Source of the DNA: Blasia pusilla
Lineage: Eukaryota
Length of the DNA stretch: 64,000 bases
Assembly (NCBI GenBank): GCA_050084515.1
Contig: CM114271.1
Location: forward strand, 32,674,001 to 32,738,000
Direction of reading: 5' to 3'
Part shown: positions 5,930-49,199 of the stretch, in pieces
Layout of the letters: each line of letters starts with the position of its first letter
How positions within the stretch are numbered: position 1 is the stretch's first letter
Made by a program: the position numbers and the translations under genes
The notes under the pieces: model-generated
What the model was told of the DNA's origin: nothing
Seen by the model: only the letters and a program-made list of their open reading frames with translations
Databases searched by the model: none

Positions 5930-7149
5930 ATGAAAAAAACAAAAGAGGGTTACTCCAAGGGTCCAGTACCCAAAAGCCATAACCGGCCCTCAAAAGGAAG
6001 AAGGGGGCATTTTCCCTATCGACTAAACTCACCAACATCAGAGACAATATCAACAAATCCTAGAGAACTATGATTACTACTAAGTGGGCCTCTAGCGCCG
6101 GCTAGCAAGAACATGTAGTCAACTTCGTCTACAAATTTTCAATCGGGAGCAACTATAACCAATTCCATGTTTGTGATAAAAGTAAATGCTTTCACCTGCT
6201 TCATTGTTCAAGAAAAACATTCTCCCTCCTCCTTGTTGAAAAAAAATTCCCCACACCAATTTTCCATTCTATTAACTACTCTCTAAATAAATCCACCACT
6301 TCACCCTATGTCTAACCATTGCTAATTTTTTTGAAAAAATGACGATTAATTTGTCCTCCCATTCCTTCATAACCACTTATTACAAAAGATATTCAAGTGC
6401 AGTTGACTATTTTATGATTTGATTCCTTGTGCATCCTACTATAATAATATGCACTAGTGAATAATGGTGGCTCCTATGCACTGAAAATTCAAACAATCTA
6501 AAAAATCAAGGAAATATTGTAAAATAAAAATTTAATTTTAGTGGATAGAAACTGTATAGGTAAATTATATTTTATTGAAATTTCTTCATTGGAATAAAAT
6601 ATGCATACATCCAAAAAAATTATTTACATTCCAAACCTATTATTTAGGTTACATCATAGTTTTTGTTTTGTTTTCTTTATTGTCTTATAGTTAGAATTTA
6701 TGTGTATTTAAGTTAAAAAAACCTGCACATTCATGAGAATTTTTTAATGAAACTTGGTAGAATTTATATTTTTTAAATAAAACTTAGTAGAATTTATTTT
6801 TTAATAAAGAAAATTATGAATAATTATTTATTTGAGTAAAAATATTGAATTTTTTAATAAATAAATCAAATTGAAGGAATAATAATGTTACATTATGACT
6901 AGTTGACCTAACGTACATGCTCTCAAAATCACATGACTTGGATTTGAGGGTTTGATTTTTAGAAGGGAATTTTGGCATTCTCAACGATTAATTTCGGTCG
7001 CTCTTAAACTTTTAAAGATGAGTATTTTTAAAAATACAAGCGTATGAAGATGAAATTTCCATGTCTAAATGTGTGAGCATAGATCCAACATGGATGATAA
7101 AGTTATATTATATTTTAGAACTTAAATTTAATGGAATTCCCGGTTTTTT

Positions 7150-8089: not shown

Positions 8090-8258
8090 TTTCGTGCGCA
8101 TACATATCACTACACAACATACATCGCTGGTCACATCTACACCACACAACACCGATCTTCCCCACACACGGGTTGATCCACACATGAACAAAAATCAACT
8201 CATACATATACAAGGAGATCACACAACCATTAACCATTAACATTATCATTACCCACAC
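8090..8258 (-). repeat. 3' LTR fragment (outer end only) of copy A
   Basis: TCGTGCGCATACATATCACTACACAACATACATCGCTG closely matches 47920 onward and 34104 onward; it is fused directly to integrase coding sequence at ~8259. Confidence 0.75.
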
Positions 8259-9261
8259 ATAACACCTCCGCCATGTCACGTCGAATTGCTGCAGGTAAAT
8301 CTCGCTCTCTCCCAAAGAGCAAAAAGTACGATGAAAATGACGCCAAGGATGCATGCCGACTAAAGCGATAACCCATAGCCAACCATGGCAACTGTAGGTC
8401 CCACTCCCTCAACTGTCCCCGCTGCAAGCCATACTTGCGCAATCCTCTCTTCACCATATGTACCACTCTCTCTGTCAACCCATCTGCCTCAAGATGATCT
8501 CTGGACGTGGTGCGGTGATCTATCAGCACCTGATCACACAAGGCCTGAAACTCTCCCCTAAACTTGGTACCCTGGTCAGTCAACACCTCCGCCGGTGCAC
8601 CAAAGTCACTAAGCACACGATCTAGAAACGCATAAGCTGTTCCCTTGCTGGCCTTGTCTGGTAGTGCCACCGACTCTATCCACTTGGAGAAATGCTCCAC
8701 CATGACCAACACGTACCTATGATGACGTCTCGTCAATGGCAAAGGTCCCGCAAAGTCTAAACTCCACTGATAACCTAAACTCATAATCGGCAAAGGATGT
8801 AACTGCGGAGTGGGAGCATTAAAGGATGCTCGCACTCTGTCACATACCATACATCTGGCCACAAACTGCTGTACCCCAGTATGCATGCCGCGCCACCAAT
8901 ACTGAACCTAGAGTAAGTTGTAAGTACGCTTTACTCCGAAATGTCCCAACTCCTCATGGGCATGTCGCACTACACCTGCTTTCTGGGAAGGATGAGGTAC
9001 CACTCGTATCCTACCATCTCCCCATACGCGCAAAATGTGAGTCCCCTCCCACCTGAACCTCTTGGCTCTCTGTAGGATCCGATCCCGCTCCCTAGCACTC
9101 ACTGTACTCGCAATGACGCCAGTCCGCAAGAACTCCACAACCTCCACGTCGTCATGGATATCAAGACCACCTGTCGCCTCCTCACTAACCTCCGGATCCA
9201 AAGACTCCTCATCCAACCCCACCACTGGAGTCATTACCTGTGGCTGACCTGCCATAGTCAA
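8259..9261 (-). pseudogene. Integrase of copy A (HHCC zinc finger plus DDE core), C-terminus deleted
   Basis: HAHEELGHFGVKRTYNLL...CMVCDR; WSLDFAGPLP; VLTDQGTKF; EADGLTERVVH (ORFs 8908-9261 and 8230-8886). Confidence 0.92.
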
Positions 9262-10860
9262 CCAACAAAGATAGGCAGATGCATGCAGCTGGGCACCATC
9301 TCCTCATCACTCTCTCCGTGCCATCGAGCTCCTCTGTCGTCTCTCCGACTCGGACATGGGTTACGACTCAACCCATCCACATCCTGGTTCAGCCAACCTG
9401 GCCTATGAACCACCTCAAACTCATACTCTTGTAGTAATAGAGCCCACCTGGCAAGCTTTCCCGTAAGCTTGTCGGACTCCATCAACCACCTCAAACTCAT
9501 ACTCTTGTAGTAATAGAGCCCACCTAGCAAGCTTTCCCGTAAGCTTGTCGGACTCCATCAACCACCTCAACGGCTAATGATCAGTGATAAGTGTGAAAGG
9601 GTTGCCAAATAAATAGCACCTGAAATGTGCCACGACCCACACTGCAGCCAAGCACTCTCCCTCGTAGGAGCTGTACTTTGCCTATGCAATGTTGTTTGAT
9701 CGGCTTCGCGTAAGCCACAACGAACTCCCTCTCCTCGTCATCCCTTCGAGTAAGCACTGCTCCTAGACCCAACTTGCTCCAATCCGTATGTAACTGGAAT
9801 GGGCGACCCCTAACCGGTCTCTGTAAAATGGGTGAGGACGTCAACCTGTCCTTGAGCTCTTGAAATGCTCGCTCTTGATCATCTCCCCACAACCAAACTT
9901 GATCAAGTCTCGTCAACAAGGTCAAAGACTTTGCGATCGCACTAAAACCCTTGACATACCATCGATAGAAGTTCGCCAGTCCAAGAAATGCTCGGACTCG
10001 ACTCACATCTGTAGGGCGTGGAATCTGCGCAATAGCCTCTACCTTCGTCTGCTGAATGCCTAACCCACTTGGGTATATGGTGTGTCCCAAGTACTCAATC
10101 TGCTCCTGAAAGAATCTGCACTTTCCTGGATGTAACTTCAGTCCATGTAATTGCAATCGCCGAAATACCTCCTCCAAGTGTCGCTCATGCTCCTCAACCG
10201 TGGAACTGAAGATAAGAATATCATCTACGTAACATCATACAAAATCCAAGCCAGCCAGAATCCTATCCATCACTCTCTAAAACTCTGCAGGTGCGTTCTT
10301 CAACCCAAATGGTAAGAACCGCCACTGATACAAGCAATATCTCCCGAACCGATCTATCCCCTGAATCGTTTGTCTTCTCCCTATCCTCCAACCTGATAGG
10401 AAGCAGATGATAGCCAGCACGGAGATCTAAAGTACTGAAGATCTTTGCATGCCCTACCGCATCAAAGATCTCCTCAGGAGTTGGCATGGCGTACCGATCT
10501 GACCTCACCTGTTGGTTGATAGGACGGTAATCTCCACACATCCGCCTATCCGTCCAATTGCCATACATATCCTTCTTCGCCGGCATGACTGTGGCACATG
10601 CATATTCCCCATGTGATAACTCCACGAGTCCTGCCTCCAACAAGTCGTGACTTCTGCTCTGAATCAAGGCTCGCTCCATATCAGAATACCTGTAGGGTCA
10701 ACGAAAGATCTGCGTATCACTAGCCAACTCAATCCGTATCTCGGGACCCTTCAGCGTACCCAAGTCTCTCATACTGAAGGAAAAAAAATTGACATGCCCT
10801 CTCAGAAACCTATGAACTCGCCGTCGCTCTCCTCCTATCAACTTGAGACCTATCACAGGC
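9258..10860 (-). pseudogene. Reverse transcriptase and RNase H of copy A, with frameshifts and stops
   Basis: RRMCGDYRPIN, FSTLDLRAGYH, LPFGLKNAPAEF, YVDD (10220-10231), KLHPGKC...IEYLGH, LHTDWSKLGLGAVL, KLARWALLLQEYEF. Confidence 0.93.
9408..9570. repeat. 76-bp tandem duplication inside RNase H of copy A
   Basis: The unit starts at 9408 and 9484; the 11-bp AACCACCTCAA recurs at 9408, 9484 and 9560; one mismatch between copies. Confidence 0.9.
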
Positions 10861-11189
10861 TCCCAAGTCTCCATCATGACCTTGCTCGGAGAGGACGCAA
10901 CCTCCGGCTTTGGTTGCTATGTAGCAACCCTAGCCACCTCCGCAACAACCACTCCACTTTGACCTCCTACACCATGCTCCACATCCAAAAAATGAACATG
11001 TGCTACTCTAGCCGCCTTTGCACTCTCTGCTGGAACGACGTCCCAGGAAGTCCATGGGTGCCTATCTCTCCTCGTCTCGCCCCGACCAATGCTGTCACAG
11101 ACCACTGAGGCAATGGTCCAACTCGTGGACGTGACGGCATGGATGACACTCGCATCCGTCTCTGCTCAGCCATACCTAGGCTGACTATC

Positions 11190-12150
11190 CATGTGAGACA
11201 GTTGAGGTCCATTGCCTGCCCCAACACCTGTCTCCGGGATGCCTCAGTTATCCTTGACATCGCCGTAGTACCGGTAGTGAACCCCATGGTGTGCTTGCGA
11301 TCATTTGCTGTAGGCTCCTCCAATGCTCCGGTCACCTTATCCAAAATCATGCCTGGCCTTCCCTAACGAAAGGCATGGGATGCTGGGAAGCTCACCAACG
11401 TAGGTAAGGCTGCCCTCAACTCCCCCATCCAATTGGCCATGGCCAACGGTGGTCTATCATCGCGTGTCATCACCTGAGATCAACGCCCTGAGCCCAAAAT
11501 AGCATCCACTGTGAGATGTGGTGCTCTCTGGACTCCATCGTATGCTCGACTCAATACCTCTAATGGTATCAGGTTCGTCCACAACAGTCGTGGACGATGG
11601 GCACGTGATCCAACTCTCGCCGCATCTAATAACACAGCAGGTCCCAACCAGGACCTCACCTGATACACACTCTTCATTACACGTGCACGAGTGTCTCCCA
11701 ACAACGGCACGTTCTCCAAGATGTACGTTGGAGAACATGTTTGACTCTCCTGCAAGTGTCGTACTACTCGTAGCATCTCCTAAAACATCCCTGACCTCGG
11801 ATGGTGCAATCCAAATCCTCAGCCAGCTGATGAATGACCTTGACATGGCCATCCAACAATCACCAAATGAATGGTGCCAACTCTATCCAGATCGTGCGCC
11901 CCCACCAAAGAGATGTCGGCGGGTAGTGTATGATGATATCCTCGTAGTGCAGATACCGGAGACAAATCAGGATACCTCTAGACCAATCTCGCCACGTGAC
12001 GTAATGATACTCTCCGCGCGGTCTCATCTCTCTCCACATAAGGGTATTGATGCACCCGTATGCCCGCCTGCAATACTGCAGCCAATCCGGTGCTAGTCCC
12101 TCCGAAGAGATCTAACACCCTAACACTCTCCTCTGGGCACTGCCACACAA
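11190..12150 (-). pseudogene. C5-cytosine DNA methyltransferase domain (DNMT3-like) within pol of copy A
   Basis: Motif I VRVLDLFGG (LDLFGG 12098-12115), II YPYVERD, IV VGWPCQG (GWPCQG 11837-11854), VI YILENV (ENV 11708-11716), VIII LDAARVGSRAHRPRLLWTN, IX EPTANDRKHTMGF, X RRQVLGQAMDLN (11204-11236), all in canonical order. Confidence 0.9.
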
Positions 12151-12499
12151 CGGGTGTGGTATCCAGTGGGGTCAACGTCTCCACTCCAAGAGCCCGATCG
12201 CCACGTGACTCTCACTGCTCCGGAATAAAAGCATGACTCCACGCTTGCCTCACGAGGTCGTCGACACTCCTCTGTAGCTCTCGAGTCATATGCCACAATG
12301 GTGAAGAGGTCTCACCAACATGGGAAGAGACACCCGCCATGGCCTGTCTCTTCGTGTGACTATGCACTATTGGGACATCCTCCGCATGTGCGTTCCCCTT
12401 TAACAACTCTCCTAGCCAGCTAACACTACCTGTGAAAGCCGCCAACATGGTCACAGACTCGCCTCGTGATCGACCACCTTGTCTCGCAAACTGCACGGG

Positions 12500-13117
12500 T
12501 AACTAACTCATCCGGCCGTCACCTGACCGCCCCCCTGGCCGATAAGAAACGGTCTCCTCCCAGAAGTCAAGGATGAATCCTAGGGGATATAACAGTGTAC
12601 TCCCCACCAACACATCCTACGACTCAGTTGGTGTCGTAATCGCACGTGTGCGCACCATAGCACTATCCATCTCATGCTCTGGCTGGAATCTGACAACTAT
12701 CTCCTGTCGAGTCATATACTGCGTGGGTGACACGCCCCCAATCGAGGTATGTATCTGTAAGGGAAAAGGCTTAATGTCGGCCTTCCGTAACCCCAACGCT
12801 AAACACGCCGCCTTCCCTAACATCAAGGGTTGCGCTCCCGAATCCACTAGGACACGCTGCGGGTGGTATACTGTCCCCGTCGGACTAACCAAGCAAAATA
12901 CTCCAGCTCGGTTATCCAGTAACACTACTCTAGGTGTCACCACTGCTTGCTCTATGGCCAGTCGAGCTGGCATATCTACCAACTTCGCCGCCGCTGCATG
13001 CCATGACTCTATGGGGAACGTCCCGAGCACCGGCATTGAGGGCAAGTCCACCACCTCCTCAACTACCTCTGAACAAGAAACACTCAACTCTCCACGCTCA
13101 CACAACGTGGCGGCCAA
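12500..13117 (-). pseudogene. Aspartic protease of copy A
   Basis: RVLVDSGAQPLMLG (retropepsin D-S-G) and a downstream YDVLVG motif. Confidence 0.85.
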
Positions 13118-13251
13118 TCAGAACACCTCAGCTGGTCCAACCCCCAACGTCGCCATCTCTATGGCGGAAAATAGCAGAGTCTGACTCACTCTGGTGGCCA
13201 CCTCCAACACTATGGTCGACTCTGACTCCACTTGAGCCGGGATAGGAGTTT

Positions 13252-14985
13252 TCACTCCAACTCCTCGAGGCGTCGACGTAGGTGCTTGAGCTGTAGGCAC
13301 CGCTGGTCGTCGAGGCACCATCGATGGTGTGTGTAGTGCCTCCGACAATGTGAATGATTGTGGAACCCTGGCTTGCCCCCATCGGTCCCCTCTGGTGGGT
13401 CAATCTCAACTCCACCTCTTGATGTCTCGGTGCCTCTCGCAGCACCCCGAGTCACCACTACCGCTGCCTCAACCCGGGTTGCACTACACATAAGCCCCAT
13501 ACTGGCGAGATCCTCACTTGGGTCAGGGTAAGAGGTAGAAGCTAGAGTCCCACTAGCTGCTTGCAGGTCCGTGCCTTCCCTAAGCTGCATCATCGTCATG
13601 GCAGCAATCTTCTGCTCTAACTTATCGATGCGTGAGAGAAGTGTCGGCTCTGGTACTCCTGCTCCCTCTCCTCTGGCTGGTGGTGGTCCTCTACCATCAC
13701 GTCCAGGAAGAACTCCCCGACCTCCTCCAAGACGACCGGCCCCAAGCCCTCGGCCTACCTCTAGACGTGCCTCTCGGCGAAGGTCAAAACACCTATCCCT
13801 AGTGTGACCATATCTATGGCAATAGTCACACTGGTGCTATGGTGGGACCATCCTCTGTGGCACCTGAGCAATCGGAGGCGCAGGTGGTTCTCTCCCATGC
13901 TGTGGGCAGTCTCTCTGCCTATGGGCCCCTCCACACGTCCAACAAGACCACATCGGTCCCTTCTGGGCAACATATGTAGGTACGGGTCGTTGCCTCATAG
14001 GCTCATGGTACCCGCCCTGCTCTCTAGGCACACTGGCCCGCTCCCGTGGTATTGGTGCTCGCTGTGGCACCTGTGGGGTCACCTTTGCTCGTGGACCCGT
14101 TGACTCTCGAGAAAATCCAGCGATGACTATCTACTCCTCACTCATGTTGAGCTCAATACGCTCAGACAACTCAAAGACCACCTTCAATGTGGGCTTCGTT
14201 GTGTGAATCAGCACCACATCTCGGACTCTCCTCCGTAGTTCTCGGTCCAGAACCCCGTACCAATACTGGACTGATTGCGCTTTAGTCACTCCATACGTAG
14301 CAATGATCAGCCTCCTCATGCGTGTGAATGCCTCTCTCAAACTCTCACCCGATCGTCGCTAAAAATCGTGTAGACTCTTCAGCTTGTCGGTGCGTACACC
14401 CTGGTTGCTCTTCCCCAAATGTCAGAAGAACTCCACTGTGGGGCTGAAGTTGGGTGGCCCTCTACCACCAGAGGTCTCTGCCACATCGCTTGTCTCACTG
14501 CCCTCCTCTCCATCTAGTCTCCGGGTTGATGGTGTGGATCTCTCTCCTCTCACAATCCCATCATATGCCTTGCGACCACTAGTGGACACATACCCTAGAG
14601 CCCAATACATCCTCCAGGCATTGATCTCTACTGAATATAGTGATCGAAACTCCATGTAGTCATCCATCGGAGGACCCCCCAAGTGCTGGAACAACCCCTT
14701 CCATGCCATGAAAGGATTGAACCGTGTCGGGGTCCATATCTCTTGGAAGTTGCACCACGTGTCGAACTCCTGGATAAAATCATCTAAGTGGATGATACCC
14801 ACTGCACCCGAGAATTGATGCATGCCCCGATGGCCCATGTCGTCCATCTCCTGCCAAGTGATACTGCCTCCGTCTGCGATCTCGTCACCAGACCCAGTAT
14901 CTAGTGATGACGATCCAACCATGGATGGATGTCGAGGTAGATCCTCACTCTTAACTCCTCGGTATCTCACTCCACTCCGTGTCAC
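13252..14985 (-). pseudogene. Gag of copy A with two zinc knuckles
   Basis: ORF pieces 14422-14985, 14131-14340 (GESLREAFTRMRRL) and 13837-14082 (CWTCGGAHRQRDC), then CDYCHRYGHTRDRC at ~13790-13832; homologous to the gag of copy B. Confidence 0.8.
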
Positions 14986-16836
14986 TCCACTACTACTGCT
15001 TGCACTACCCCGTTCTTCCGAACCCTGGAAGAACGCTGTGATGACAAACCGTGTCTCACCTACTCAAGGACTCAGACTCACCGAGAGTCTCCCACACTCC
15101 TCACTAGCTCACCTATGCTAACGCCAATCCCGTGATGACACACCCGGCCTCAGGCACACTCAACACTTGGGCTCACCATGAGCCTCCCAACTGACTCATC
15201 TAACCTAGCGACACTCTCTCCGGTCATACACGCAACCCCTACTTGGCAACCGCCGTATATCTACCAACATGCTACACGTGAAAAGATTCTATACTCGTCA
15301 CCATCACTCAACCCACCTAGCACCAGCTACTACCCGATACCCAACACTCTCAATCACACATGACAAGTGCAGGGAAAGGGACTCGAATAGGTAACCTGAT
15401 CACGCCCACCAACCTACGTACCGTCAACACTCACTCATCCATGTCGTATGACAACGTCCGCAACACAACACTCTCCTCAACTAACACGTCGATCCTCCCG
15501 TCAACAGATATGGACAACCCGTTTGGATCATGTGCACTGACACTCCATCGTCAATTTCCCCCCGCAAACTGTCACGTTCGTCGAATTGTGTCCGGTCTCA
15601 CCACGTAGCTCAACATCAACCACATCCACTGTCCAACTATATAGGTCGCTTACCACATCGATATTCTCACCGCTACCACGAACGTGTCCTTATGGACGTG
15701 ACCATGATCTTAACCCCCGAAAGCCTTTCTGTCCCGCTTCCTGCTTGATGCGACCTTGCCTTCTCCACACCCGACCTGCGTTTCTGTCTGTCAAGCGAGC
15801 CTCCTCTCCTGATATCCTTACTTCCGTCCCGTGGCCTTGTGTGGCTGCCTTTCGCAGCTCCGCTCTCCAGACTCCGTCTGACTCCCCTGCTTCCTTCCTT
15901 GGCCCCTACCTTGGAGCCTTGAATGCGGGAGAGGGGCGGTGGCCTGTGCCCCTATGCCTCTCCTCTAACCTTAGATCCTTAAAGGCTCTTGGCCCCTTGC
16001 CTAGCTGCGGCCCTGGCCCCCTCATGCCAACTTAACCTCCTCTCTGCATCTAAGGGCACGTGGCCCTATGCAAGCTCCCTCCAACCTCAGAGCTTCTTGC
16101 TCCTTCCTCCTCCAAACCTTCTGTGTACTCGGGCACCGTACCCTATGCACCTCCCGCGTTCCTGGAGCTCTGGGCTCTTTCTTTCCTCGAATTCTCTCGG
16201 ACCCTTCTGGCCTCTACAAGTACTCTCCACGGGCCCACGGCCCTATGCAGCCCCACCCAATCCCACATGAGCCTTCACACCCCCACACCCAATTCTAACT
16301 CCCTGCCTCGGACGTAGACGAGTCCCTTGCCTGCGTGAGCCTCTCTCCCCGTTTTGCTTCCACCCGCCCCGCGCAATTCCTCGCATCCGTTTAGACCTAA
16401 ACGACTACCTCCATGAAAAGTGTGACCTAACTGTGACCTAGGCGGCTATGATCTACAATCCTCTTGGCGGTTGTAGCTCTCAAAGCTACTCTTTTCTCTC
16501 TCTTGACACACTCGCCCATGAACACCCGTTGTGAAACTTCCCGCTACACTCCGCTGTTGTCCCCCATAGACCCACACCATCAAAATCTGAGAAGAAACGG
16601 ACAGCGCTTCCGCACGTAGGTTTTTGAATAGAAAAATGACCAACACCTGCAACAGACGCGTCTCCAGGGACTCCCGACCAAGGCAACTCTCTTGCCTACC
16701 TGCAAACAACGAGTTCCCACCAACCCCATGACATCTTTCTCATGTAAAAATAAAGAGTAGTAAAAACGGCACACCCGGCCTAAATCTCCACTCCTCAATT
16801 TACATCGGCATATTGAGCCTCGTCTACCCTGTGCTA

Positions 16837-17506
16837 TCAAGGAATCCAGACGCTAGCACCCTAGTCCTATCTCACACACATACAAGAGAGGTGCTCCAAC
16901 GGCCCAACATGAGAAAGATGGCTTAGGAAAGTCATCTTCCTCTCTTATATAGGGTTGGAAAAGTGTCAAAAGGCTCTTCCCCCAAAAATAGCCATCCCCT
17001 TGGTAACCTACGCGCACAGGTTACGAGGGTCGGGTGACCTGGTCAACAACTCACCCGGTTGTGAAAGACCTCTATATGAAAGTTATCAGAAACGACATTC
17101 CTGACACAATGGACCTATCCTCAAGGAATCCAGACGCTAGCACCCTAGTCCTATCTCACACACATACAAGAGAGGTGCTCCAACGGCCCAACATGAGAAA
17201 GATGGCTTAGGAAAGTCATCTTCCTCTCTTATATAGGGTTGGAAAAGAGTCAAAAGGCTCTTCCCCCAAAAATAGCCATCCCCTTGGTAACCTACGCGCA
17301 CAAGTTATGAGGGTCGGGTGACCTGGTCAACAACTCACCCGGTTGTGAAAGACCTCTATATGAAAGTTGTCAGAAACGACATTCCTGACACAATGGACCT
17401 ATCCTCAACCTCATCCGACTGGGACAAAGTTACACTCAAGATATTCCGCTAGCTCCTACGCCCTATCCACGATAGATCACGGCCTATCGACTACCCAGAT
17501 GTGACA
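16837..17506 (-). repeat. 5' LTR fragment (U3/promoter part) of copy A, containing a 284-bp tandem duplication (16837-17408)
   Basis: Ends in GTGACA like the solo LTR and shares GGTAACC-N10-GGTYAC and CTCTATATGA with it. Minus-strand TATA CCCTATATAAG near 16950 and 17234. Duplicated units start at 16837 and 17121, with about 4 mismatches. Confidence 0.8.
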
Positions 17507-34212: not shown

Positions 34213-35074
34213 CTCCAGGAGTATGACTTCCACGTGGTACATAGATCTGGGACGCTCAACCAGGATGCAGATGGTTTGAGCCGTAACCCATGCTCGAGTT
34301 AGCGAGATGCAACTCGAGCTCAATGGCATGGAGAGAGTGATGAGGAGGTGGTGCCAAGATGGCACGCGTCACCCTATTTGGGCTTGTTGGCTATAGAAGC
34401 CAGATGTTGAGACTTTGATGGCTAGGTCTGATGGAGAGTCCTTAGATCCAGAGGCCGATGAGGAGACGATAGGTGGCTGAGACATTCACGACAATGGAGT
34501 GGTCTTGGAGTATTTGCATACTCGTAGAGTCGCGAGCACAATGGGTGCTAGAGAGCAGGATCGGATCCTACAACGAGCCAGACAGTTCCGGTCGGAGGGG
34601 ACACATGTGTTGCAAGTTTGGGAGGATAGTAGAGTGCGTGTAGTGCCTCATCCTTCGCAGAGAGCACGTTTGGTGCATCATGCCCACGAGGAGTTGGATC
34701 ATTTTGGAGTGAAGCGGACGTACAACTTGCTCCAGATATAGTATTGGTGGCAAGGCATACAGACTGACGTTCAACACTTTGTTGCGAGGTGCATGGTGTG
34801 TGATCGAGTCCAAGCATCGTTCAATGCTCCGACTCCACAGTTGCATCCACTTCCGATCATGGGTTTAGGTTATAGATGAAGTTTTGATTTTTCAGGACCT
34901 TTGCCTTTGACGGAGCGCCAGAGTCGTTATGCGTTGGTGATGGTCGAACACTTCTCCAAGTGGATAGAGTTGGTTGCATTACCTGACAAAGTGAGTGAGG
35001 GAGTAGCGTATTCCTTCCTAGATCGGATGCCGAGTCATTATGTCGCACTAGCTGAGGTGTTGATAGACCGTGGT
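34213..35074 (+). pseudogene. Inverted RNase H tail and integrase N-terminus/core of copy B
   Basis: LQEYDFHVVHRSG, HAHEELDHFGVKRTYNLL, CMVCDR, VMVEHFSKWIELVALPDK, AEVLIDRG. Confidence 0.9.
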
Positions 35075-35099
35075 ATCTACAACCAGATTGAATATTTGG

Positions 35100-35727
35100 G
35101 TCAATATAACACCTAGCAAAATCCAGACCTGCCAAGATCCTATCCATGACCCTTTGAAACTCAACCGGGGCGTTCTTTAACCCAAATGGTAAGAACCGCC
35201 ACAGGTACAAGCAATCCTTCCCGTGAGGATCAATGCCCCAAAATGCTATTTTCTGCATGTCCTCCAATCTGATAGGCAGATGATGGTATCTGGCTCGAAG
35301 ATCAAACGAACTGAAGACCTTGCATGCCCAATAGCATCAAAGATCTCCTCAGGGTGGGCATGGCATACCTATCAGACTTTGTCTGCCAATTGATAGGTCG
35401 GTAATCTCTACACATCTTCCTATCCGTCCAATTTCCATGCACATCCTTCTTGGCGGGCATGACAGTGGCAGATGCATACTCTCCATGCGACATCTCCACT
35501 AGTCCTGCTCCAACCAAGTCATGGCTCCTACTTTGAATCAGAGCCCTCTCCTTGTCACTGTACTTGTAGGGTCTTCGAAAGATCGGCGTGTCACTCGACA
35601 ACTCAATGCGGATCCTTGGACCCTTCAATGTACCCAAATCATGCATACTAAATGGAAAACAGTCCCTATAACTCCTCAGGAAGTGATGTATCCGCCGCCG
35701 CTCTCCTCTTGTCAACTTAGGGCCCAT
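35100..35727 (-). pseudogene. Reverse transcriptase N-terminal half of copy B, broken within YIDD
   Basis: PIFRRPYKYS, RKMCRDYRPIN, AFWGID, LPFGLKNAPVEFQRVMDRILAGLDFARCYID, then the breakpoint. Confidence 0.9.
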
Positions 35728-36094
35728 ATTTGGCTCTCAAGTCTCCATTGTGACTACGGTAAGACTCTTTGACGTTGGTGTAGGTGGTTGGTATGGTGCA
35801 ATCCTATCTCGGACAACAGAACTCGACTGCTCCCTTACAGCCAATTGCAAAATCGGATCTCCATGTGCAGTACCCGACACCACTCTAGATGTTGTGGCTA
35901 CCATCTCTAGGCGTACCTGCAAAACATCCCAAGAAGTCCAAGGATGTCTCTCCCGATCACCCATGGTGTGTCGATCTCCTCGGGTCTCGCCCCCAGCCAC
36001 TGCCTCAACCGTCTTGGTAGACATGGGGCTCACCAACGCAACAACTATGATCTATCACATCCGCAAACAACGTTGCTCAACAATTCCTAAGTTG

Positions 36095-37065
36095 AAAATC
36101 CATGTCAAGCAATTCAGGTCCATCGCCTGACCCAAGACATGACGTCGTGATGCCTCTAATAGTGATGGTATTGCCGTCACTCTTGTGGGAATCCCATCAC
36201 TCGCTCTCGCTCATCGGCGTTGGGCTCCACCAACTGCTGTACTTGGTCATCCCAAACCAAGCTAGGTCTGGCCTCCTTGAATGCATAAGAAGCTGGAAAA
36301 CTCACCAAGGTGGAAAAGGCTACCTATGGCATGCCAATCTTGTTGACCACAGTCAATGGCGGTCGATCATCGTATTGTACTGCCTCTGATCGATGACCTG
36401 GATCCAAAATAGAATCCACCAATAAATCAGAGGGGCGCTCCACTCTTGCATATGCCCTCCGCAACACCTCGTGTGGTACCAAGTTGGTCCACCAAAGATG
36501 CGGGCGGTGTGCTCTAGAACCTACACTTGCCGCATCTAATAACATTGTCGATCCAATCCATGCGCGCACTTGATGTGCACTTATCACCACGCGGGACCTC
36601 GAGTCGCCCAAAATCGGCACATTCTCAAGAATGTATGATGGAGAACAAGGCTGATGCTCTTGTAAATATCACAAGATCCGCATCATCTCCCAAAAAAACC
36701 TGGACCGAGTTTTAGTTAACCCGCTACCTCCTCCAGCACTTGATTGGCCTTGACACGGCCAACCAACAATGACCAAGTGTATGGTCCCTACGCTCTCCAA
36801 GTCCTGCGCCCCCAGCAATGAAATGTCCCTCGGTAGGGAACTCTGGTAACCCTGGATGGCGGACGCAGACAACAAGTCGGGAAAGCGGAGGCGTAACTGC
36901 GCCACATGATGAAGTGAAGCGCGCCTCGCAACATCATCAATCTCCACATACAGGTACTGCTGCACGTGTACTCTTGCTTGCAAAATAGCAGCTATATAAC
37001 CTAGTGTTGATCCCTCCAAAGAGATCCAACATCCGAATACCCTCCTCTGGGATGCGCCATACAAT
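36095..37065 (-). pseudogene. C5-cytosine DNA methyltransferase domain (DNMT3-like) of copy B
   Basis: IRMLDLFGGINT (LDLFGG 37012-37029), YLYVEIDD, LPRDI, IVGWPCQG (GWPCQG 36747-36764), ILENV (ENV 36618-36626), LDAASVGSRAHRPHLWWTN, VEPNADERERVMGF, RRHVLGQAMDLN (36112-36147). Confidence 0.9.
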
Positions 37066-37399
37066 AGATGTGGTGTCCAAGGGCGTCATCATAGCACTTT
37101 CGACTACCTCGGGTTCCTCTGACCCCTCACACTCTATTGCAAATGCCTCGCTCCATGCAGTCTGCACATGCTCAATGGCTAAGCATCGAAGCTCCTCAGT
37201 CGAGCCCCAAAGCGGCACCTCTCCTCCACGGACTGATATGGCGACCATGACACTCCTCTCCATAGAAATGTCAGGAACGGACGTATCCTCTGTGTGGACA
37301 TGTCCCTCAGTCAAATCACTAGGCCAAGTGATGGCACTGCTAGATGCTGCTAAGGTCGCCATCTCTCTTGGCCGTCGCTTGATCACTGAACTTGTGAAT

Positions 37400-39900
37400 C
37401 AAGTAATGAGCTAAGGCGCCATCACCTGAGTGCCATCCTTGTGTGAAGCGTGCTGACTCCTCCCAATAATCCAGGGAAAACCCTATTGGTTGTAACAATG
37501 CTCCACCAACCAAGACGTCGTAGGACTCTACATCAGTCACTATTGCCTTGGCTCGCACCACGGACTCATGTGTAGGATGTCCCGAGCGAATCCTCTCCAC
37601 GACCTCCTATCGGGTGATATACTATGTGGTACTTGCTCCATCCAAGGATGTCTGTATCCGGAATGGACAACGCTCCACATCGGCTCTAGTCAAACCCAAT
37701 CCTATGAATGATGCTTTCCCCAACATCAGGGGTTGCGCTCCTAAATCCAACAAGATGCGCTGCGGACTAAAAGCTCTACTTCTAGGACTCACCAATTGGA
37801 AGACCTCTCCCTGCAACACAACTCCAAGAGAAGCCATGGCCCGCTCTATCGCGGGTCTAGCGGGCATCTCCGCCATCCTAGCAGTTGCAGCCTGCCATGA
37901 ATTTGATGTGGACGGCCCGAGCATCCGCTCCAAGAGTAGGTCCATCACCTCCTCTACAATCACCTCTGAACGTGATGCAAGAACTCCAACTCCACGCTGA
38001 CATAGCGTAGTGGCCAGCCAGAACACCTCGGCGGGCGTACCTCTCAATGTCATAACATCGGAAGCAGAAAATAGCAAAGCACGGTACACCATCATGGTCG
38101 CTCCCAACATTGTATTCAACACATGCTCCTCTTGAGCATCAGCAATAGGAGTCTTCGTACTCGTTTCTCCCATCACTTTCCCTATGTGCACAACAGTAAT
38201 ATTGCCAACTCTCCGGGAAATTTGATCAAGACTCATCTATGGGGTCCTCATCGCCTTGGACAACGTGAATGATTGAGGAATCCTCGTCTGTTTCTTGGCT
38301 TCCCTCCGCTGTGGATCTAACTATGCAGTTGCTCCACTCGTCACAACTACGACAGCCTCCGTCTGGAAAATCTCGCATATCCAACCAAATCCTCCATATC
38401 TCTGGATGCTCCATATGATGTCGATGCCACGGATCCGGCATCGGGTAACCTCAATGCCATAGCGCAATCTACTCTTGTAGCTGTTGTATCTCAACAACCA
38501 TCCTTGCCTCACGCTCGGCATCTCCCTCAATGCGTCTAGGTGGTGAGACTCTACCTCCTCAACAGGAAACTCCACCACCTTGTCGCGCAACTCCAGCTCC
38601 TCGTCCCCCAACAGAACCACCTGATGCACGACTTCTAGGCCCATCCGGACTGGCTACTCGCTCTCGTGCCCTCTCTGGCCCTCGCTCCGAATGTAACTCA
38701 AGGTGTAAACTGAAACACCTGGCGCGTGTGTGACCATAACTTTGACAATAGTCACATTGATAACCTCCTAGTGCATCACCATCTCCTCCTCCATGCTGAG
38801 GCACACGTCCATGACCCTGACGAGTGCAATCACCCTGATGATGGGCTCCACCACATGACCAACAAGTAATCATAGACTGCTGGTGCTGAGCCGCATGTGA
38901 AGGCGCAAGTTTCTATGGCATGGCCTCCCGGTATCCTCCTTGAGCTCGTGGTGCCACAGTCAACCTATCTTGGAGTCCACATTGCTACACTAGTGGTACA
39001 GGCAATTGTGACTGCTCTTGCCTAGAACCCATGGCGGCTACGCTTTCCTCCGCCATATTGCGCTCAATGTTCTCTGTGGTCTTAAAAACATCTCTCAATG
39101 TAGGTGAGGTGTTCATAAGAAGCACCCCCTCCCACTCCCGTGCCCGTAGGGTCCGATCCAGCATCGCGTACCATGACTGGATAGCCTGAGCCTCTCTCAT
39201 CCCCTGAGTGAAGTTGATCAACCGACGCAAGTGAGTGTAAGCCTCACGCAAACTCTCACCCAGGTGCCCGTGGAAGTTGTGGATGCTCCACAACTTCTCT
39301 ATTCGTACCCCCTGGTAGCTCGCCCTCAACTCAGCAAAGAACTCAACCACGGGGTTGAACTTGGGACGAACGCGACTAGACGGTGCAACTGCTCCTGTGC
39401 GAGTGACGCCTCCTAAAAAATCACTAGTGGAAGAGGAAGTAGCCTCTGCTGACTCCTCCTCCTCATGTGGGAACGACTCTGTCCATGACACATAGTGTGG
39501 GTCATAGTAGAGTCACCATATCTCAATCTCCTCGGCATATCTGTGGGAGAACTCATGATAATCGTCCATGGGTGCCCCCTTTAAATGCTGGAATATACCG
39601 TTCCATGCTGTAAATGGGTTGAACTCTCTAGAGTTCCTAGCCCGTTGTGAGTCACACCAACTCCTAAACTCCGCAATGAAGTTGTGTAGCTCTATAGTGC
39701 CTACAACACCCAAAAACCTACGTGGTCCTCTACCTTGATCGTCCATCTCGTACGCCCAACTAGTAGGACCACTCAATATGTATGGTGGATTACTAACACA
39801 CTCCTATACACGCTCTCCCTCGTTTGAAGATGATACAGAAGGAGATCAAGGTGGTCTCTCACGTGGAGACCCTCGAAACCTCGCACCACTCCGGGTAAAC
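37400..39900 (-). pseudogene. Gag (two Zn knuckles) and protease of copy B
   Basis: GESLREAYTHLRRL, CWSCGGAHHQGDC, CDYCQSYGHTRARC, RILLDLGAQPLMLG, YDVLVGG. Confidence 0.85.
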
Positions 39901-40744
39901 CCTCCATAGCTACTCTCAGGTCCACTACCTCTCCTCTCAAAATCCCGAAAGGCTGCCTTGATGACCCTTATGCCCCTCTCACACGATCACTCTCAATCTT
40001 GCAAGTAATCCCTCAATCACTCAAACTAAACATGCGGCACTCAATCTACACTCTCTCACTAAGACGTGTGTTGTGCGGCAACAAGCGGCGTGGTCCGAAA
40101 AATGAACTGATCTATCGTCTCATGGATAAACCATCCTCAACTCTGGACATCCCACACAGGTCTATGTCCCCTAAACCCATACATCATCGATGCTCTCAAC
40201 ATCAGCACGAAACCTAATATCCCAAATAACTTCCCAATACCCGGAAATCCCACACACGTGTAGGGTAAGAGACCAAAATGGGTAACCTGACAATAATGTC
40301 AATGTCGCTCCTCTACAACTGCAAATCTTGACCCTAACTCGTTCGTGAAGATAACTCCTCCAATCAGCAAGTCGTACTCTGCTCGTACTGATGTTGCTTA
40401 AACCTCCTCAATATGCGGTGTGGATCTAGCAATTCGGTGCGGCACTAGCGGCATGGAACGGCTACAAAATGACATGGCACTTGATAATGGGATGTGGCAC
40501 TCCATAGCATACCCTCCTCAATCAGCAATACACACTCTTTTCTCCTTAGTGAAGGAGCGGCTCCGCGATCGAGACGGTGCGGTGCGGCCTCGAGCGGCAC
40601 GACGCGGCAATTGGCGGTGCATTGCGGCTACGGGCCTCACGCATGCATCAACATCTGCGACAATAGCACTCCTCAAAGGCCATCTAGGGATCATCAATGG
40701 GGTCCAAAGAGCTCTAAAAATGGGAAAGAGTGGATAAGTCTAGC

Positions 40745-41186
40745 TTGCCTGCCAGCTTCTCCCCTCTGGAGATCCAACTCCACATCGGATCGTTGTGGCT
40801 TAGAAGCTCTCATCGTGCCTCTCGTAACCACTATATCTGCATCCACCTGTGCAGTGTTGCACAAAAATCCCATACCTCCTAGAGCATATAGAGGGCCACA
40901 GCATATCGAGAAGTAGACACGCCCCCCATACTTGATGTAGATGCCTGTTGGGCCGTCATAGCGTGAAGGCGTTGCTCCAACTGAGCAATCCTCACCAAAG
41001 TTGCCTCTAATGCAAGTGTTGCACTTGCTCTAGAAGGTGGTGGGGTCCTGCCTCCACCACATTATCGACCTCCTACACCTGGTCCTCTGCCACCTCCAGG
41101 TCCTCCACCTCCCTCTACGCGCAGCTCGGGGTGGAGCTCGAAACATCTCTCAGGTGTGTGGCCATATCTCAAGCAATGATCACACT
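40745..41186 (-). pseudogene. Gag fragment of a fourth copy (D) of the same Gypsy family
   Basis: The minus strand reads CDHCLRYGHTPERCFELHPEL and ...CNTAQVDADIVVTRGTMRASKPQRSDVELD, homologous to copy A CDYCHRYGHTRDRCFD and CSATRVEAAVVVTRGAAR...GVEID. Confidence 0.75.
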
Positions 41187-44710: not shown

Positions 44711-45929
44711 TTCACAAAAATCTAATACTTGGTCCATGTCTTACACTTGAGACTAGTGTTTTCCTTATCTTATTTATGTATTTGAGATATTTCTATCAAG
44801 ATGGCATACCTTTCTTAGAATATTTATCTCGTCGTACTAGAGAACTATTTTTGAGTTTTACCTTATATAAACCCTACATGTTATTGATGTATCAACTAAG
44901 ACAATCTATACAAGAATCTATAGCACTTGCCTCCACCTTTAAGGATCCGATCCCATGTGGCCAAGATCGCCAAGACTTATGTGTACATGTCACGTTGTTT
45001 TGCTATTATTGTTTTAGGTAAGTATCATTCTATACTTACCTACTATTATTGGGAGTGGGTTTGATTTGACATTGAGAGAGAAATGTAAGAGTGCACACAT
45101 GTGAGAGCTATGGTGTTGTGAGAGAGATTTGACCTTATTTTACAAAGAGAGAATGAGAGGGTGAGAGCTAGTTTTGATAGGGATTGAGTATGGGGGGGTT
45201 GCCCTATGCTGGTGCTCTCGGGAGCACCATATAGCTTGCTGATTTGTATTTTCACAGGTTTTACATTTTCGTTGGGAGAAATCAGCGCGGAAGCGCTGCC
45301 AAAATTTATGTAGGAGAAGAGATGTTAGGATTTACAAGAGTCCCAGTAAGTTTTTATTGGAATGTCCGATTTAAAATATTTTTTGATGCCATCGTAGATC
45401 ATAAAGTTGCGCACGCTGTGCAATAGACGATGCACGATTTGGAGTATGAGCATAAAGTTATGGCCGATTTTGAAAAACCGCCATTGTTAGGTAATTTTTA
45501 GGATAAAATTGTTCAAACCCTAAACCAACCGCCGCGCCGGCGGCGGCCGTCATCTTCAACGGTCCACCATCATCTTCGATGGCCTATTGTCACCATCAAC
45601 GGTCCGCCATCACCGTCGATGGTCTATCATCATCGTCCGATGTCGACCTTTGACCGTCGATCGTCGTTGAGAGCCGCATTCGGCTGTTGTCCGTTGTTGG
45701 TTGCCAATGCCACCATTATGGAGTGGACGGTCTTCCACGACAACCGTTGATTCTTTGACTTACACCGCCACCATGTACTTTTTTGTGGCCGCCACTATCA
45801 TTGCAATTCCGTCATCAACCAGTGATGGCAAGTAACCTCGGGTTACGGTGTTTGAGATTTCATTTCATTTTGCTCTGTCCCACGTTCTCTAGGAGTGAAG
45901 ACGTTGATACCCTTTTACACCACATCGAT

Positions 45930-46880
45930 TTTGTGGCAATATCCCGAGGAGGGTGTATGTATACTTGATCTCTTTGGAGGGATTAGTACAACATTGATTG
46001 TAGTGTTGCAAGCTGGAGTACAAGTACATCAGTACTTGTATGTTGAGAGAGATGAGACTGCACGGAGAGTCTCATTACATCATGTGTCGAGACTAGTCTA
46101 GAAGTATCCTCAATTATTGCCAGTGTCTGTTGTCATGGGATATCAACATGTATTGTCAGCCAATATTTTGTTGATGGGGGCACCAGATCTGGATAGGGTT
46201 GATCCGATACACTTGGTGGTGGCAGGATGGCCATGTCAGGGTCATTCTTCGGCGGGTTAGGGACATGGTTTGCAGAACCCGAGGTCGGCCATTTTTTGGG
46301 ACATGTTGTGAGTTCTCCGATACTTGCAGACTACCCAGTGATGTTCTCCAGCTTATTTTGGAGAATGTCCCATTGTTAAGTGACTTTTGAGCCCAAGTGG
46401 TGGCAAGTGTACATCAGGTTTGGTCATGGATAAGACCGGCTGTGATGTTGGATGCAGCGAGTGTTGGATCACGCGCACATCGGTCACAATTGTGGTGGAC
46501 AAACCTTTTACCATCCGAGTTGTTGAGGTGGGCTTATGATGGAGTCCAGAGACCATCACTACTAACACTGGATGTGATCTTGGATCCAGGGCGGCGATCT
46601 TAGGTTGTTACCCGTTGGTAGTGGGCCAGCAAAAGGCAGCATCTCAGGCAACATTGCCTACGTTGGTGAGTTTTCTGGCATCTCATGCTTTTTGTCAGGG
46701 AGGACCAAGCATGATATGGGGTCAGTAGGAAGGTACACTGGTGGAGCCCAACGCTGACGAGTGAGAGCGAGCTATGGGGCTATCTACAGGTACGACGATG
46801 ATGCCTATGATGGAAAAGGCATCCCTCAGATAGGTATTGGGTCAGGCTATAGGACCTGAACTGTCTTACTTGGATGTTCA
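45930..46880 (+). pseudogene. C5-cytosine DNA methyltransferase domain (DNMT3-like) of copy C
   Basis: VCILDLFGGIST (LDLFGG 45964-45981), YLYVERD, VVAGWPCQGH (GWPCQG 46225-46242), ILENV (ENV 46361-46369), LDAASVGSRAHRSQLWWTN, VEPNADE*ERAMG, LR*VLGQA (46825-46861). Confidence 0.9.
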
Positions 46881-47190
46881 GTCTTGGTTTGGCTAAGCAG
46901 TGACGCCTGCGAGAGGCGTCTGTGACATTACGTCCACTTTGCAGCGCTACGTCTACCCGAACGGGTGAGACATTGGCTGGGGGCGTGATGGTGATGGAGA
47001 GGCATCCATGGACTTCATGGGATATGTCACGAGAGCACAGAGAGATGGAAGTTCATTTTGTTGATGCAAGACATAGTGGATGCCTAGAAAGTTGGTGTCT
47101 GAGTTGGGAGAGCATGTTGCTGCTCCAGAGGTTGCTAGTTAGCAACCACCACCCTCCTCTTCTCCAAAGATCGCAAGAGAGACTTGGGAG

Positions 47191-49020
47191 ATGGTGATTG
47201 GTCCTAGGTTGACAGGAGCGGAGAGGAGACGAGTGTTGCAGTTCTTGTGGAGATTCAGAGATTGTTTTGCATATACTATGAATGACTTGGGTACACTAAA
47301 GGGTCCAGATATTCGGATCGAGTTGGATAGTGATATTCCTATCTTCCGACGACCCTACAGGTATTCCGACATGGAGCGAGCCTTGATTGAGAGTAACAAT
47401 CGAGACTTGGCTGACGCTGGAATGGTGGAGAGATTGCTTGGAGAGTATCCATCTACTACAGTTATGCCGACAAAGAAGGACATGCATGGCCAATGGACTG
47501 ATAGACGGATGTTTGGGGATTACCATTTGGATTGAAGAACGCCCCTGCACGTTTTCAACGAGTTATGGATAGGATTTTGGCTGGTTTGGATTATGCGAGA
47601 TGTTACATCGATGACATTTTTGTCTTCAGTGCCACGGTTGAGGAGCATGAGAGACATATGGAGGAGGTGTTTTGATGATTGCAATTACATGGGCTGAAAT
47701 TACATCCAAGCAAGTGTGGATTCTTCCATGACCAGATCGAGTACCTTGGACACATCATTTATCTAGGGGGTATTGGGGCAGCGTATGAAGATGGAGGCCA
47801 TAGCGCGCATTCCCCACCCTACAGATGTGAGTCGAGTTCGAGCTTTCATGGGATTGGCGAACTACTACCGACGGCACGTGAAGGGCTTTAGTGCCATTGC
47901 GAAGGCATTGACTTTAGTGTCGTGCGCATACACATCGCTACACAACATAGATCGCTGTCAGCGAACACACACACACACAAACACACACAATCCCATGCTA
48001 ACTCATGGCATCCATACACAGAGACGAGGAGTACCAAAATATCTCCAATAAAGTAAGATCCAATTTATCTCTACACCATCTCACACCATAGCTCTCAAAG
48101 GTGTGCACTCTCTCTCATATCAAACCAAACCCACTCTCCTAATGAGAGGCTTGGGTTACACTCACAAAGCAAGGGACCATAGCTCCGCCGCCTTATGCCA
48201 AGAGGTTCAACAAAGAGAGAATGAGCTCTCAAAGCTCCCTCTCTTGGAGGTATATCCCCTTCCCTCTACCAAGCCCTCTCAACGGTAACCTATGCTCGCA
48301 GGTCACCTCCTTGGCTCTTGAACTACTGTAACGGGTCAAGGGCTATTTCCCAAAGTGGAAATTCAACTATCCCCAACATGGAAACTTACCCCGAAATAGT
48401 AAGTTTCTCTATATGACTCCAAATGAACCGAAACGAAGGGGAAACCTCCTCTCTCAGGTTTCGTGGGGCCTCTGCATGTCATTCTCGACCTCCTGGGCAT
48501 GTCCTCCACTACTTGTGAAGACGCTTTGCTAGATCCCACCGATCTATCCTAATAGTCGTGACATTGCTGACTAGGTTGGACCAGGAGTGGTTTTGGGGAG
48601 ATGATCAAGAGCGAGTATTTCAGGAGCTCAAGGATAGGTTGATGTTCTCAAACATTTTGAGGAGACCTATGCGTGGTCGTCCGTTCTAGTTACATACGGA
48701 TTGGAGTATGTTGGGGTTAGGAGCGGCTCTCACTCAAGAAGATGATGAGGGGAAGGAGTTCGTAGTGGCAGATGCAAGCCGCTCGAACAACAAAGGCGAA
48801 GTTCCTATGAGGGGGAGTGCTTAGCTGCACTGTGGGTAGTGGCCCATTTCAGTTGTTATTTGTTCGGGAACCCTTTCACACTCGTCATTGATCATTAGCC
48901 ACTCATGGTTGATGGAGTCTGACAAGCTTACAGGGAAGCTTGCCAGATAGCCACTCTTGTTACAAGAGTATGATTTTCAGGTTATCCATCGCCCATAACA
49001 TCTAAACCACGATACGGACG
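47191..49020 (+). pseudogene. RT and RNase H of copy C, with an internal deletion and interrupted by a solo LTR
   Basis: PIFRRPYRYS, RRMFGD, LPFGLKNAP, YIDD (47604-47615), IEYLGH, SAIAKALT | LTR | LLTRLDQ, LHTDWSMLGLGA. Confidence 0.9.
47918..48563 (-). mobile_element. 646-bp solo LTR of the same family, inserted antisense into the RT of copy C
   Basis: TGTCGTG...CGTGACA termini; it interrupts AKALT/LLTRLDQ, which is contiguous in copy A; its ends match the LTR pieces of copies A and B; TSD degenerate (TTAG vs TTGC). Confidence 0.88.
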
Positions 49021-49199
49021 GGTTGAGCTGTGACCCATGCACAAGCCAGAGTGAAGTGGCATGGTGAGAGTGATGAGGAGATGGTGTCGGGTTGGCACGC
49101 ATCTGCCTATTTGTGTTTGTTGGCTATGTCAGGTTAGCATGAGGCATCCACTCCATGAGGGAGGTTGGATGGTGAATCCTTAGATCCACATGGTAGTGA

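Follow-up and report, generated by a model that had tools for sequence, protein, structure and literature searches.

What does a retrotransposon gain from carrying its own silencing-type enzyme? This question, which has stood since 2018, is raised by a stretch of 64,000 nucleotides from Blasia pusilla (NCBI GenBank assembly GCA_050084515.1, contig CM114271.1, positions 32,674,001 to 32,738,000 of the forward strand), which is referred to in its entirety as the window. A decayed retroelement of 9.4 kb, here termed copy A, occupies positions 8092-17506 of the window on the minus strand and encodes Gag, protease (PR), a cytosine-5 methyltransferase (C5-MTase), reverse transcriptase (RT), RNase H (RNH), and integrase (IN). 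Copy A is almost certainly a dead copy of a high-copy Ty3/Gypsy-type retroelement family of the streptophyte "Gypsy-DNMT3" kind, in which a first open reading frame (ORF1) encodes Gag, PR, and a DNMT3-type C5-MTase and a second (ORF2) encodes RT, RNH, and IN, in frame past a leaky-looking UAG. The group was first published, as KnitGypsy-Dnmt3, in 2018; to judge from sequence, the copy A family is a further member, with its nearest relatives in liverworts. With regard to function, the reading preferred here is that an active MTase, fused to Gag, is carried into the particle and methylates newly made DNA of the element itself, to which a probability of roughly 0.4 is assigned.

The ends of the element were placed at 17506 and 8092 by public DNA reads. 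An earlier examination of the letters alone (the sequence-only reading) had given 17506 and 8090; the former position holds and the latter is replaced by 8092. The parts of copy A were mapped by tblastn with liverwort proteins (including Marchantia P0006 and also P0005), and the Pfam order on the minus strand, RVT_1, RT_RNaseH_2, Integrase_H2C2, and rve, is that of Gypsy elements, with RT, RNase H, and integrase lying downstream of the MTase. The features of copy A, and of two diverged relatives in the window, are as follows.

16746-17506, minus strand: terminal repeat A, the 5' end of the element, which starts TGTCAC (read joints linking 8227 to 16746 and 17506 to 8092; sequence)
16837-17404, minus strand: 284-nt tandem duplication in repeat A, with a TATA-like CTATATAAG (tandem-repeat search)
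14848-16745, minus strand: leader, from repeat A to Gag (read-depth table)
13378-14847, minus strand: Gag with CCHC zinc knuckles, decayed, with a frame shift at about 13378-13399 (tblastn, P0006 residues 1-477)
12617-13117, minus strand: aspartic protease, VLVDSGAQ (weak Asp_protease_2 and gag-asp_proteas Pfam matches, E 0.02-0.04; alignment to P0005 and P0006; translation)
11150-12172, minus strand: DNMT3-like C5-MTase domain of 341 codons, with 5 in-frame stops and no frameshifts (PF00145, E 6e-8; AlphaFold2 (AF2); Foldseek)
10911-10919, minus strand: in-frame stop and its context, TAG CAA CCA, between Gag-PR-DNMT and RT-RNH-IN (junction comparison)
9644-10865, minus strand: reverse transcriptase, decayed, in two frames (RVT_1; tblastn to P0005 residues 696-1050)
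9318-9705, minus strand: RNase H, broken by a 76-nt tandem duplication at 9405-9556 (RT_RNaseH_2; a few reads skip the 76 nt)
8230-9303, minus strand: integrase (H2C2 zinc finger, rve core), ending in a stop codon 3 nt ahead of repeat B (Pfam; sequence)
8092-8227, minus strand: terminal repeat B, 136 nt (read joints and loose ends; B1/B2 repeats in related loci)
34213-41184, minus strand: copy B, a relative that is diverged and also rearranged; its DNMT lies at 35989-37067
45887-50091, plus strand: copy C, a relative that is diverged and also fragmentary; its DNMT lies at 45913-46851

The identification of the methyltransferase rests on several lines of evidence that agree. Minus-strand positions 13399-11003 translate as one protease-MTase frame of 799 residues, with no frameshift and 10 stops (TGA four times and TAG six times), along which the motifs VLVDSGAQ, VLDLFGG, YVERDE, VGWPCQG, YILENV, SRAHRPRLLWTN, DRKHTMGF, and SRRQVLGQAMD follow one another. 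The claim that C5-MTase motifs stand in canonical order between protease and RT is thereby borne out, as it also is by PF00145, by the predicted fold, and by more than 100 homologous loci. Among the motifs that had been named, DSGA, LDLFGG, YVE, GWPCQG, ILENV, and LGQAM are all present, whereas the "ERxMGF" motif reads DRKHTMGF in copy A and ERERAMGF in relatives. None of five separate ORF fragments from the DNMT region matched PF00145, because the stops cut the domain; when the whole copy A frame was searched with X at the stops, PF00145 matched with an E-value of 6e-8 (32.9 bits), and copy B matched with an E-value of 4.9e-8 (33.2 bits), so that both copies exceed the curated cut-off of 22 bits and are recognized as C5-MTases by the profile. 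The structure predicted by AF2 for the 341-codon domain (translation of 11150-12172 with X at the 5 stops, and an alignment of 43 family rows) has a predicted local distance difference test (pLDDT) score of 94.7 and a predicted template modeling (pTM) score of 0.93. In a Foldseek comparison to the PDB, the matches listed were all DNMT3A, DNMT3B, or DNMT3C, with E-values near 1e-16, identities of 18-21%, and target TM scores of 0.78-0.83 on isolated catalytic-domain chains. Agreement among profile, fold, and the more than 100 homologous loci means that chance does not explain the match.

The kind of methyltransferase is indicated by a profile of nine relatives, which when searched against PDB sequences matched DNMT3A (1.8e-11), DNMT3C (6e-10), and DNMT3B (1.3e-9) ahead of HaeIII (1.5e-5), a tobacco DRM entry (1e-3), HhaI (1.6e-3), DNMT2 (2e-3 to 1e-2), and Arabidopsis DRM2 (0.19); the same search returned no match to DNMT1 or to a chromomethylase (CMT). 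The alignment to DNMT3A is collinear and the domain is therefore not permuted. Further, Pfam detected PF00145 alone, and no chromo, PWWP, or ADD domain, in the 799-residue frame or in the related proteins P0004 and P0006. The description of the domain as DNMT3-like, not circularly permuted, and free of a chromodomain thus stands, with the best PDB sequence match and the listed fold matches all falling on DNMT3; by profile and predicted fold, the domain is best placed nearer DNMT3 than DNMT1, CMT, DRM, DNMT2, or the bacterial enzymes. In each of 44 aligned family domains, G107, C110 (the PCQ cysteine), G121, E153 (of ENV), and R195 (motif VIII) are invariant, and the MTase is likely to be catalytically active. 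Host DNMT3 enzymes (human DNMT3A and DNMT3B, mouse DNMT3C, and Marchantia MpDNMT3b = Mp5g09290) have the catalytic fold and motif order in common with the element domain. The latter differs in that it lacks PWWP and ADD domains, is fused to Gag and protease, is present in many copies, and carries Trp before PC and QG after it (GWPCQG).

The methyltransferase is an integral part of the family. Copies A, B, and C, which are 64-79% identical in DNA among themselves, each carry it between protease and RT, and it has the same position in proteins of liverworts, a moss, and Closterium. In the databases, the nearest proteins are predictions of the form Gag-PR-DNMT or PR-DNMT-RT-RNH, which come from Marchantia polymorpha and Calypogeia fissa and have 53-64% identity to copy B over the best local alignment. 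A wider protein search recovered 20 Marchantia models (with one cluster of 18 members), Sphagnum and Closterium proteins, and many metagenome ORFs (67 matches, with 39 in a further search), and a metagenome scan recovered 110 loci encoding a relative, of which 80 were kept. An exhaustive profile search of proteins clustered at 50% identity yielded 19830 proteins at E <= 1e-3, 3127 at E <= 1e-10, and 596 at E <= 1e-30. The weak end of this search surely includes ordinary methyltransferases; the best 150 of the 19830 are all family members. The Gypsy-DNMT3 group is therefore large (596 clusters at E <= 1e-30) and extends to the genomes of bryophytes, where gene models of Marchantia, a model liverwort, belong to it. 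Comparisons of copy A with the other lineages, excluding the L061 pair, gave proportions of nonsynonymous (pN) and synonymous (pS) differences of 0.22-0.31 and 0.63-0.73 for the DNMT domain and of 0.15-0.19 and 0.58-0.68 for RT; these proportions are given instead of dN/dS, which is rough in view of the saturation of dS. For the L061 pair, the DNMT domain gave a pN of 0.38 and a pS of 0.82, and the protease-linker part of copy A compared with the other lineages gave a pN of 0.32-0.36. The DNMT domain, like RT, thus appears to have evolved under purifying selection.

Public reads from B. pusilla, comprising one Hi-C DNA run and three RNA runs, were mapped at 95% likeness or higher with depth recorded per read orientation. 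DNA depth is about 0.4-2.5 in the flanks, 300-480 over RT-RNH-IN, and 47-185 over Gag-PR-DNMT, with 81-91 in the DNMT bins and 61-91 in the protease bins. These depths suggest that near-identical copies of the family number some hundred or more, among which the DNMT is as frequent as its ORF1 neighbors. At first sight, the 3- to 5-fold lower depth over Gag-PR-DNMT than over RT-IN hints at copies that are devoid of DNMT, as would be expected if the MTase were a nested insertion or a captured fragment of a host gene that is private to copy A. However, the lower depth spans the whole of Gag and protease rather than DNMT alone, and none of the 15 joints listed (of 60) excises DNMT only. Moreover, the domain lies in an unbroken frame with the protease and is common to copies A, B, and C and to the 110 metagenome loci. 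A private origin is thus extremely improbable and, given the shared position, the unbroken frame, and the depth pattern, is refuted for practical purposes; the sequence-only reading, which had treated the domain as belonging to the element, is upheld in this regard by the shared position and by purifying selection.

That same reading had assigned the MTase to Pol, and here the data lead elsewhere, since the domain sits within a Gag-PR-DNMT frame that is closed by a conserved in-frame stop. Of 45 metagenome loci that contain both parts, 36 have the DNMT tail and the start of RT in one frame, and 35 of these 36 have a stop at one aligned place (VFA, stop, QPMASS, followed farther on by TWEPLI). 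At 42 junctions caught by pattern (41 loci and copy A), the codon at this place is TAG in 26, TAA in 15, and TAC in 1; the six bases that follow read CAACCC at 38 junctions and CAACCA at 2. The sequence TAG CAA CCA is found in copy A (10911-10919, minus strand) and copy C (47140-47148, plus strand), and copy B has TAC CAA CCA (codon site 35791-35793, minus strand). In Marchantia, Calypogeia, and metagenomes, the predicted Gag-PR-DNMT proteins terminate at the matching place, 60-100 residues past the last MTase motif. The type I readthrough consensus of tobamoviruses is given as UAG_CAR_YYA (Firth and Brierley 2012, PMC3542737), and the junction context of copies A and C fits it. As described in the same source, the leaky UAG of tobamoviruses and the gag-pol UAG of gammaretroviruses likewise lie in frame upstream of a polymerase, and copies A and C match the six-nucleotide context exactly; in the copy A family, in contrast, the stop follows protease and MTase rather than Gag alone, the context is CAA CCC in most related loci, and readthrough is a prediction. 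Because a conserved in-frame stop separates Gag-PR-DNMT from RT-RNH-IN, the MTase would be made together with Gag, as the C-terminal part of an abundant Gag-PR-DNMT protein, and RT-RNH-IN would be made via readthrough only. Placement of the enzyme on the Gag side of the stop changes its expected dose and packaging.

The repeat structure is also unusual. Copy A had been described as a long terminal repeat (LTR) retrotransposon, which in the strict sense it is not: two tools and a relaxed BLAST search found no LTR pair in or around copy A in the window, neither repeat A nor repeat B has a partner within the window, and the family is instead bounded by split repeats in the order A-coding-B-A-B. 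A pair of A repeats about 8.7 kb apart is present in 7 of 20 long related loci, and a pair of B repeats of 111-118 nt flanks the second A in 5 of 6 related loci, with 0-7 bases between B1 and A2 according to BLAST borders; the order A-coding-B-A-B follows from these two kinds of pair. The split repeats were seen in L014, L042, L050, L054, and L055, and it should be noted that L014 and L050 are one insertion. DNA reads support the split-repeat form, with A-to-B joints linking 8227 and 16746 in 157 + 131 reads and B-to-A joints running from 17506 to 8092 in 37 + 41 reads, mostly with 4 letters in between, which is the commonest form of the B-to-A spacer in reads. Copy A itself carries A-coding-B alone, without the following A-B pair of full family members, and the last A-B was perhaps lost through recombination between B1 and B2. 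Examined by eye, the ends of relatives appear to be TG..CA, and the flanking bases are CATA on both sides (L014/L050), AATC (L055), and AACA versus AATA (L054). In copy A the start is TG, but the other end has been altered and there is no visible target duplication. The family thus appears to combine a DDE integrase, ends of the TG..CA type, and target duplications of 4 bp with split repeats, an order that the canonical two-jump scheme of reverse transcription does not yield. A DDE-integrase element with DIRS-like split repeats therefore presents an unexplained replication problem.

How might the enzyme serve the element? According to the preferred reading, the MTase would be translated on every Gag-PR-DNMT chain and would thus be as abundant as Gag, with RT-IN arising from rare readthrough. 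As a Gag fusion it would enter the virus-like particle, where the protease would release it. It could then methylate the element's new DNA before or at integration, a step for which the odds are put below even, closer to one in three than to one in two, and the new copy would arrive pre-marked like resident, tolerated DNA. Self-methylation of cDNA was proposed for DIRS elements by de Mendoza et al. (2018), in whose text the dinoflagellate DIRS enzymes are described as producing CG methylation in yeast (PMC5890265). Several points count against this reading. KnitGypsy-Dnmt3 gave no methylation in yeast, a result that its authors described as inconclusive (PMC5890265), and no Gypsy-borne DNMT3 is known to be active. 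The sequence gives no clue as to whether the substrate is cDNA, host DNA, or RNA. With an observed/expected CpG ratio of 0.69, copy A does not stand out from the remainder of the window, where the ratio is 0.28-0.91, and shows no sign of special self-methylation; the saturation of dS mentioned above makes the selection estimate a rough one. With respect to the stop, 38 of 42 junctions have CAA CCC rather than the exact YYA of the consensus, the bare 9-nt motif occurs in the window about as often as expected (4 times, against 3.7), and in two more distant lineages (P0044 and Closterium P0050) the frame runs into RT without a stop. Readthrough is predicted from conservation and context only, and the weight of the motif rests on its conserved in-frame position.

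Other functions would also account for a conserved DNMT3-type domain in this position. The enzyme could act in the nucleus on host chromatin, whether in the neighborhood of the insertion, on other transposons, or on host genes, and so dampen insertion damage or remodel the methylome of the host. The enzyme could be plentiful, since the family is transcribed and its copies seem to number a hundred or more; moreover, host DNMT3 acts on chromatin, and an effect on the host epigenome was raised by de Mendoza et al. (PMC5890265). Yet Pfam finds no reader domain (PWWP, ADD, or chromo) in the copy A type, an enzyme fused to Gag-PR is more to be expected in the particle than free in the nucleus, and the methylome of K. 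nitens is described as ordinary and plant-like despite the copies that it carries (PMC5890265), all of which makes a nuclear role unlikely, at about one chance in five. Less probable still is that the domain methylates RNA, as DNMT2 does tRNA, placing 5-methylcytosine (m5C) on the element's genomic RNA and thereby affecting packaging, stability, or escape from RNA silencing. RNA methylation was suggested for a LINE-borne enzyme (PMC5890265), and the enzyme considered here would be made together with an RNA-binding Gag; however, it is far nearer in sequence to DNMT3 (1.8e-11) than to DNMT2 (2e-3 to 1e-2), and its listed fold matches are all to DNMT3.

A role that requires no catalysis is similarly improbable. 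DNMT3 family members can serve as non-catalytic partners, and the domain could bind DNA or methylated chromatin and steer integration in the manner of an inactive DNMT3L-type partner. The sole relative that has been assayed is one for which activity was not shown (PMC5890265). On the other hand, three residues that a domain used only for binding could do without (the catalytic cysteine, the glutamate of ENV, and the arginine of motif VIII) are invariant in 44 of 44 domains. Methylation of the element's own DNA by an enzyme packaged with Gag is retained as the preferred reading. A bolder extension of it, which is speculative and would have to be called doubtful, is that the particle holds as much MTase as Gag and little RT-IN, that pre-methylated DNA copied from a DIRS-like split-repeat genome is inserted by a DDE integrase, and that, with a hundred or more transcribed copies, transposon-borne DNMT3 accounts for a real share of the de novo methylation of these plants. 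If this were true, Marchantia, which has near-identical gene models, would be a genetic system in which to establish the purpose of transposon-encoded MTases.

The position of the MTase next to the protease is one of two that are found in the wider family. When 211 family proteins were annotated with family-derived domain probes, the DNMT was found either after the protease (PR-DNMT-RT), as in copy A, or between RNase H and integrase, in proteins with a PHD finger at the end. In a FastTree phylogeny of the 211 DNMT domains, which is unrooted and contains no host enzymes, the two architectures part by a single change (57 versus 98 rows, local support 99), and copies A, B, and C fall in a supported group of 17 rows that also holds every one of the nine Marchantia rows, the row from Calypogeia, and metagenome locus L002. 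The second architecture (RT-RNH-DNMT-IN-PHD; Haematococcus lacustris P0010, metagenome P0048, and also P0063) has a homologous MTase, with 32-42% identity, that differs from that of the copy A type in lying between RNase H and integrase, with an added PHD finger, rather than after the protease. It is present in about 98 of the 211 family proteins, with one annotated example in the green alga H. lacustris. No published account of this architecture was found in the literature search, and it is apparently undescribed.

Among known systems, the closest is KnitGypsy-Dnmt3 of Klebsormidium nitens, which, as described by de Mendoza et al. (2018), likewise has a non-permuted DNMT3-type MTase in a Gypsy-type polyprotein of a streptophyte, under purifying selection, and for which the legend of their Fig. 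4c indicates A-coding-B-A-B repeats, as in the copy A family (PMC5890265). Compared by description only, the family reported here differs in that its nearest relatives are from liverworts and in that its copy number looks far higher than the few copies given for K. nitens in that paper (PMC5890265). Two features, the stop after the MTase and the high copy number, may be peculiar to the copy A family or common to it and the element of the alga; no protein named as Klebsormidium was among the database matches of the family searches. SymbioDIRS-Dnmt3 of Symbiodinium also combines a DNMT3-type domain in a retroelement polyprotein with the order A-coding-B-A-B. That element, however, is a DIRS element with a tyrosine recombinase and, according to the same paper, CG methylation in yeast (PMC5890265), in contrast to the DDE integrase and the apparent TG..CA ends and 4-bp duplications of the copy A family, which is known from sequence alone.

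Later literature touches on the group in passing. The phrase "streptophytes (Gypsy-DNMT3)" is used in a preprint of 2026, in which de Mendoza et al. (2018) are cited, and DNMT3 inside streptophyte retrotransposons is mentioned in the text of a 2025 paper. A literature search for a Gypsy-DNMT family of liverworts, mosses, or other land plants found no paper, though figures and supplements lay outside the search and may hold more, and such a family is not mentioned in the text of two Marchantia methylation papers and one moss DNMT3 paper. Related Marchantia gene models are already in public databases.

Copy A shows in several respects what has become of a member of this family. The 284-nt duplication in its repeat A is private-looking, and the 76-nt duplication in its RNase H is absent from other copies, as judged from the few reads that skip the unit. 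Reads from other copies have small indels where copy A changes frame, and the frame breaks of copy A therefore look private. Translations of its Gag ORFs retain CX2CX4HX4C strings; there is no zf-CCHC Pfam match on copy A itself, and one is found in relative P0050. Where copy A and the reads disagree, a T or an A in copy A stands against a C or a G in the reads at 143 and 112 sites, compared with 53 and 46 for the reverse cases, as would be expected if methylated cytosines had been deaminated in a silenced copy. Of 35 near-full DNMT matches in metagenomes, 34 have 1-9 in-frame stops and few frameshifts, the remaining one (L002) being without a stop, and few ORFs of more than 400 residues are present in the metagenome loci. 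Decay as advanced as that of copy A is thus the rule among the metagenome copies. Together with copy A, these stop-rich, frameshift-poor copies point to heavy C-to-T decay of silenced copies. Two candidate signatures were considered and dropped: CpG depletion as a sign of self-methylation, which does not discriminate, and an editing signature (on the sense strand, CpA in excess of TpG, and G-richness), since G is not depleted and codon make-up explains the pattern.

Transcription appears to be low. The RNA reads are sparse, nearly all of them sharing one orientation, with a depth of 2-12 over RT-IN and 0.2-1.9 over DNMT; in most stranded libraries this single orientation would correspond to sense transcripts. 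A leader segment at 15471-16372 has a DNA depth of 1.1-3.2, that of single-copy sequence, compared with 30-480 elsewhere in the element, and is either a private insertion or a fast-evolving leader. Because this single-copy segment bears RNA reads (sense depth 0.6-5.0), the locus of copy A itself seems to be transcribed.

Elsewhere in the window, the integrase part of copy B (34213-35100) is inverted relative to its own RT and DNMT parts. Positions 52838-53812 and 57316-57897 (plus strand) are two exons of a host gene with Na_sulph_symp matches (E 1.7e-47 and 1.3e-39), probably a transporter of the dicarboxylate or 2-oxoglutarate-malate type. Finally, the segment at 6000-6450 has a DNA depth of about 20 and sharp loose ends of RNA reads at 6062 and 6096-6102, and looks like an expressed exon of a multi-copy sequence.

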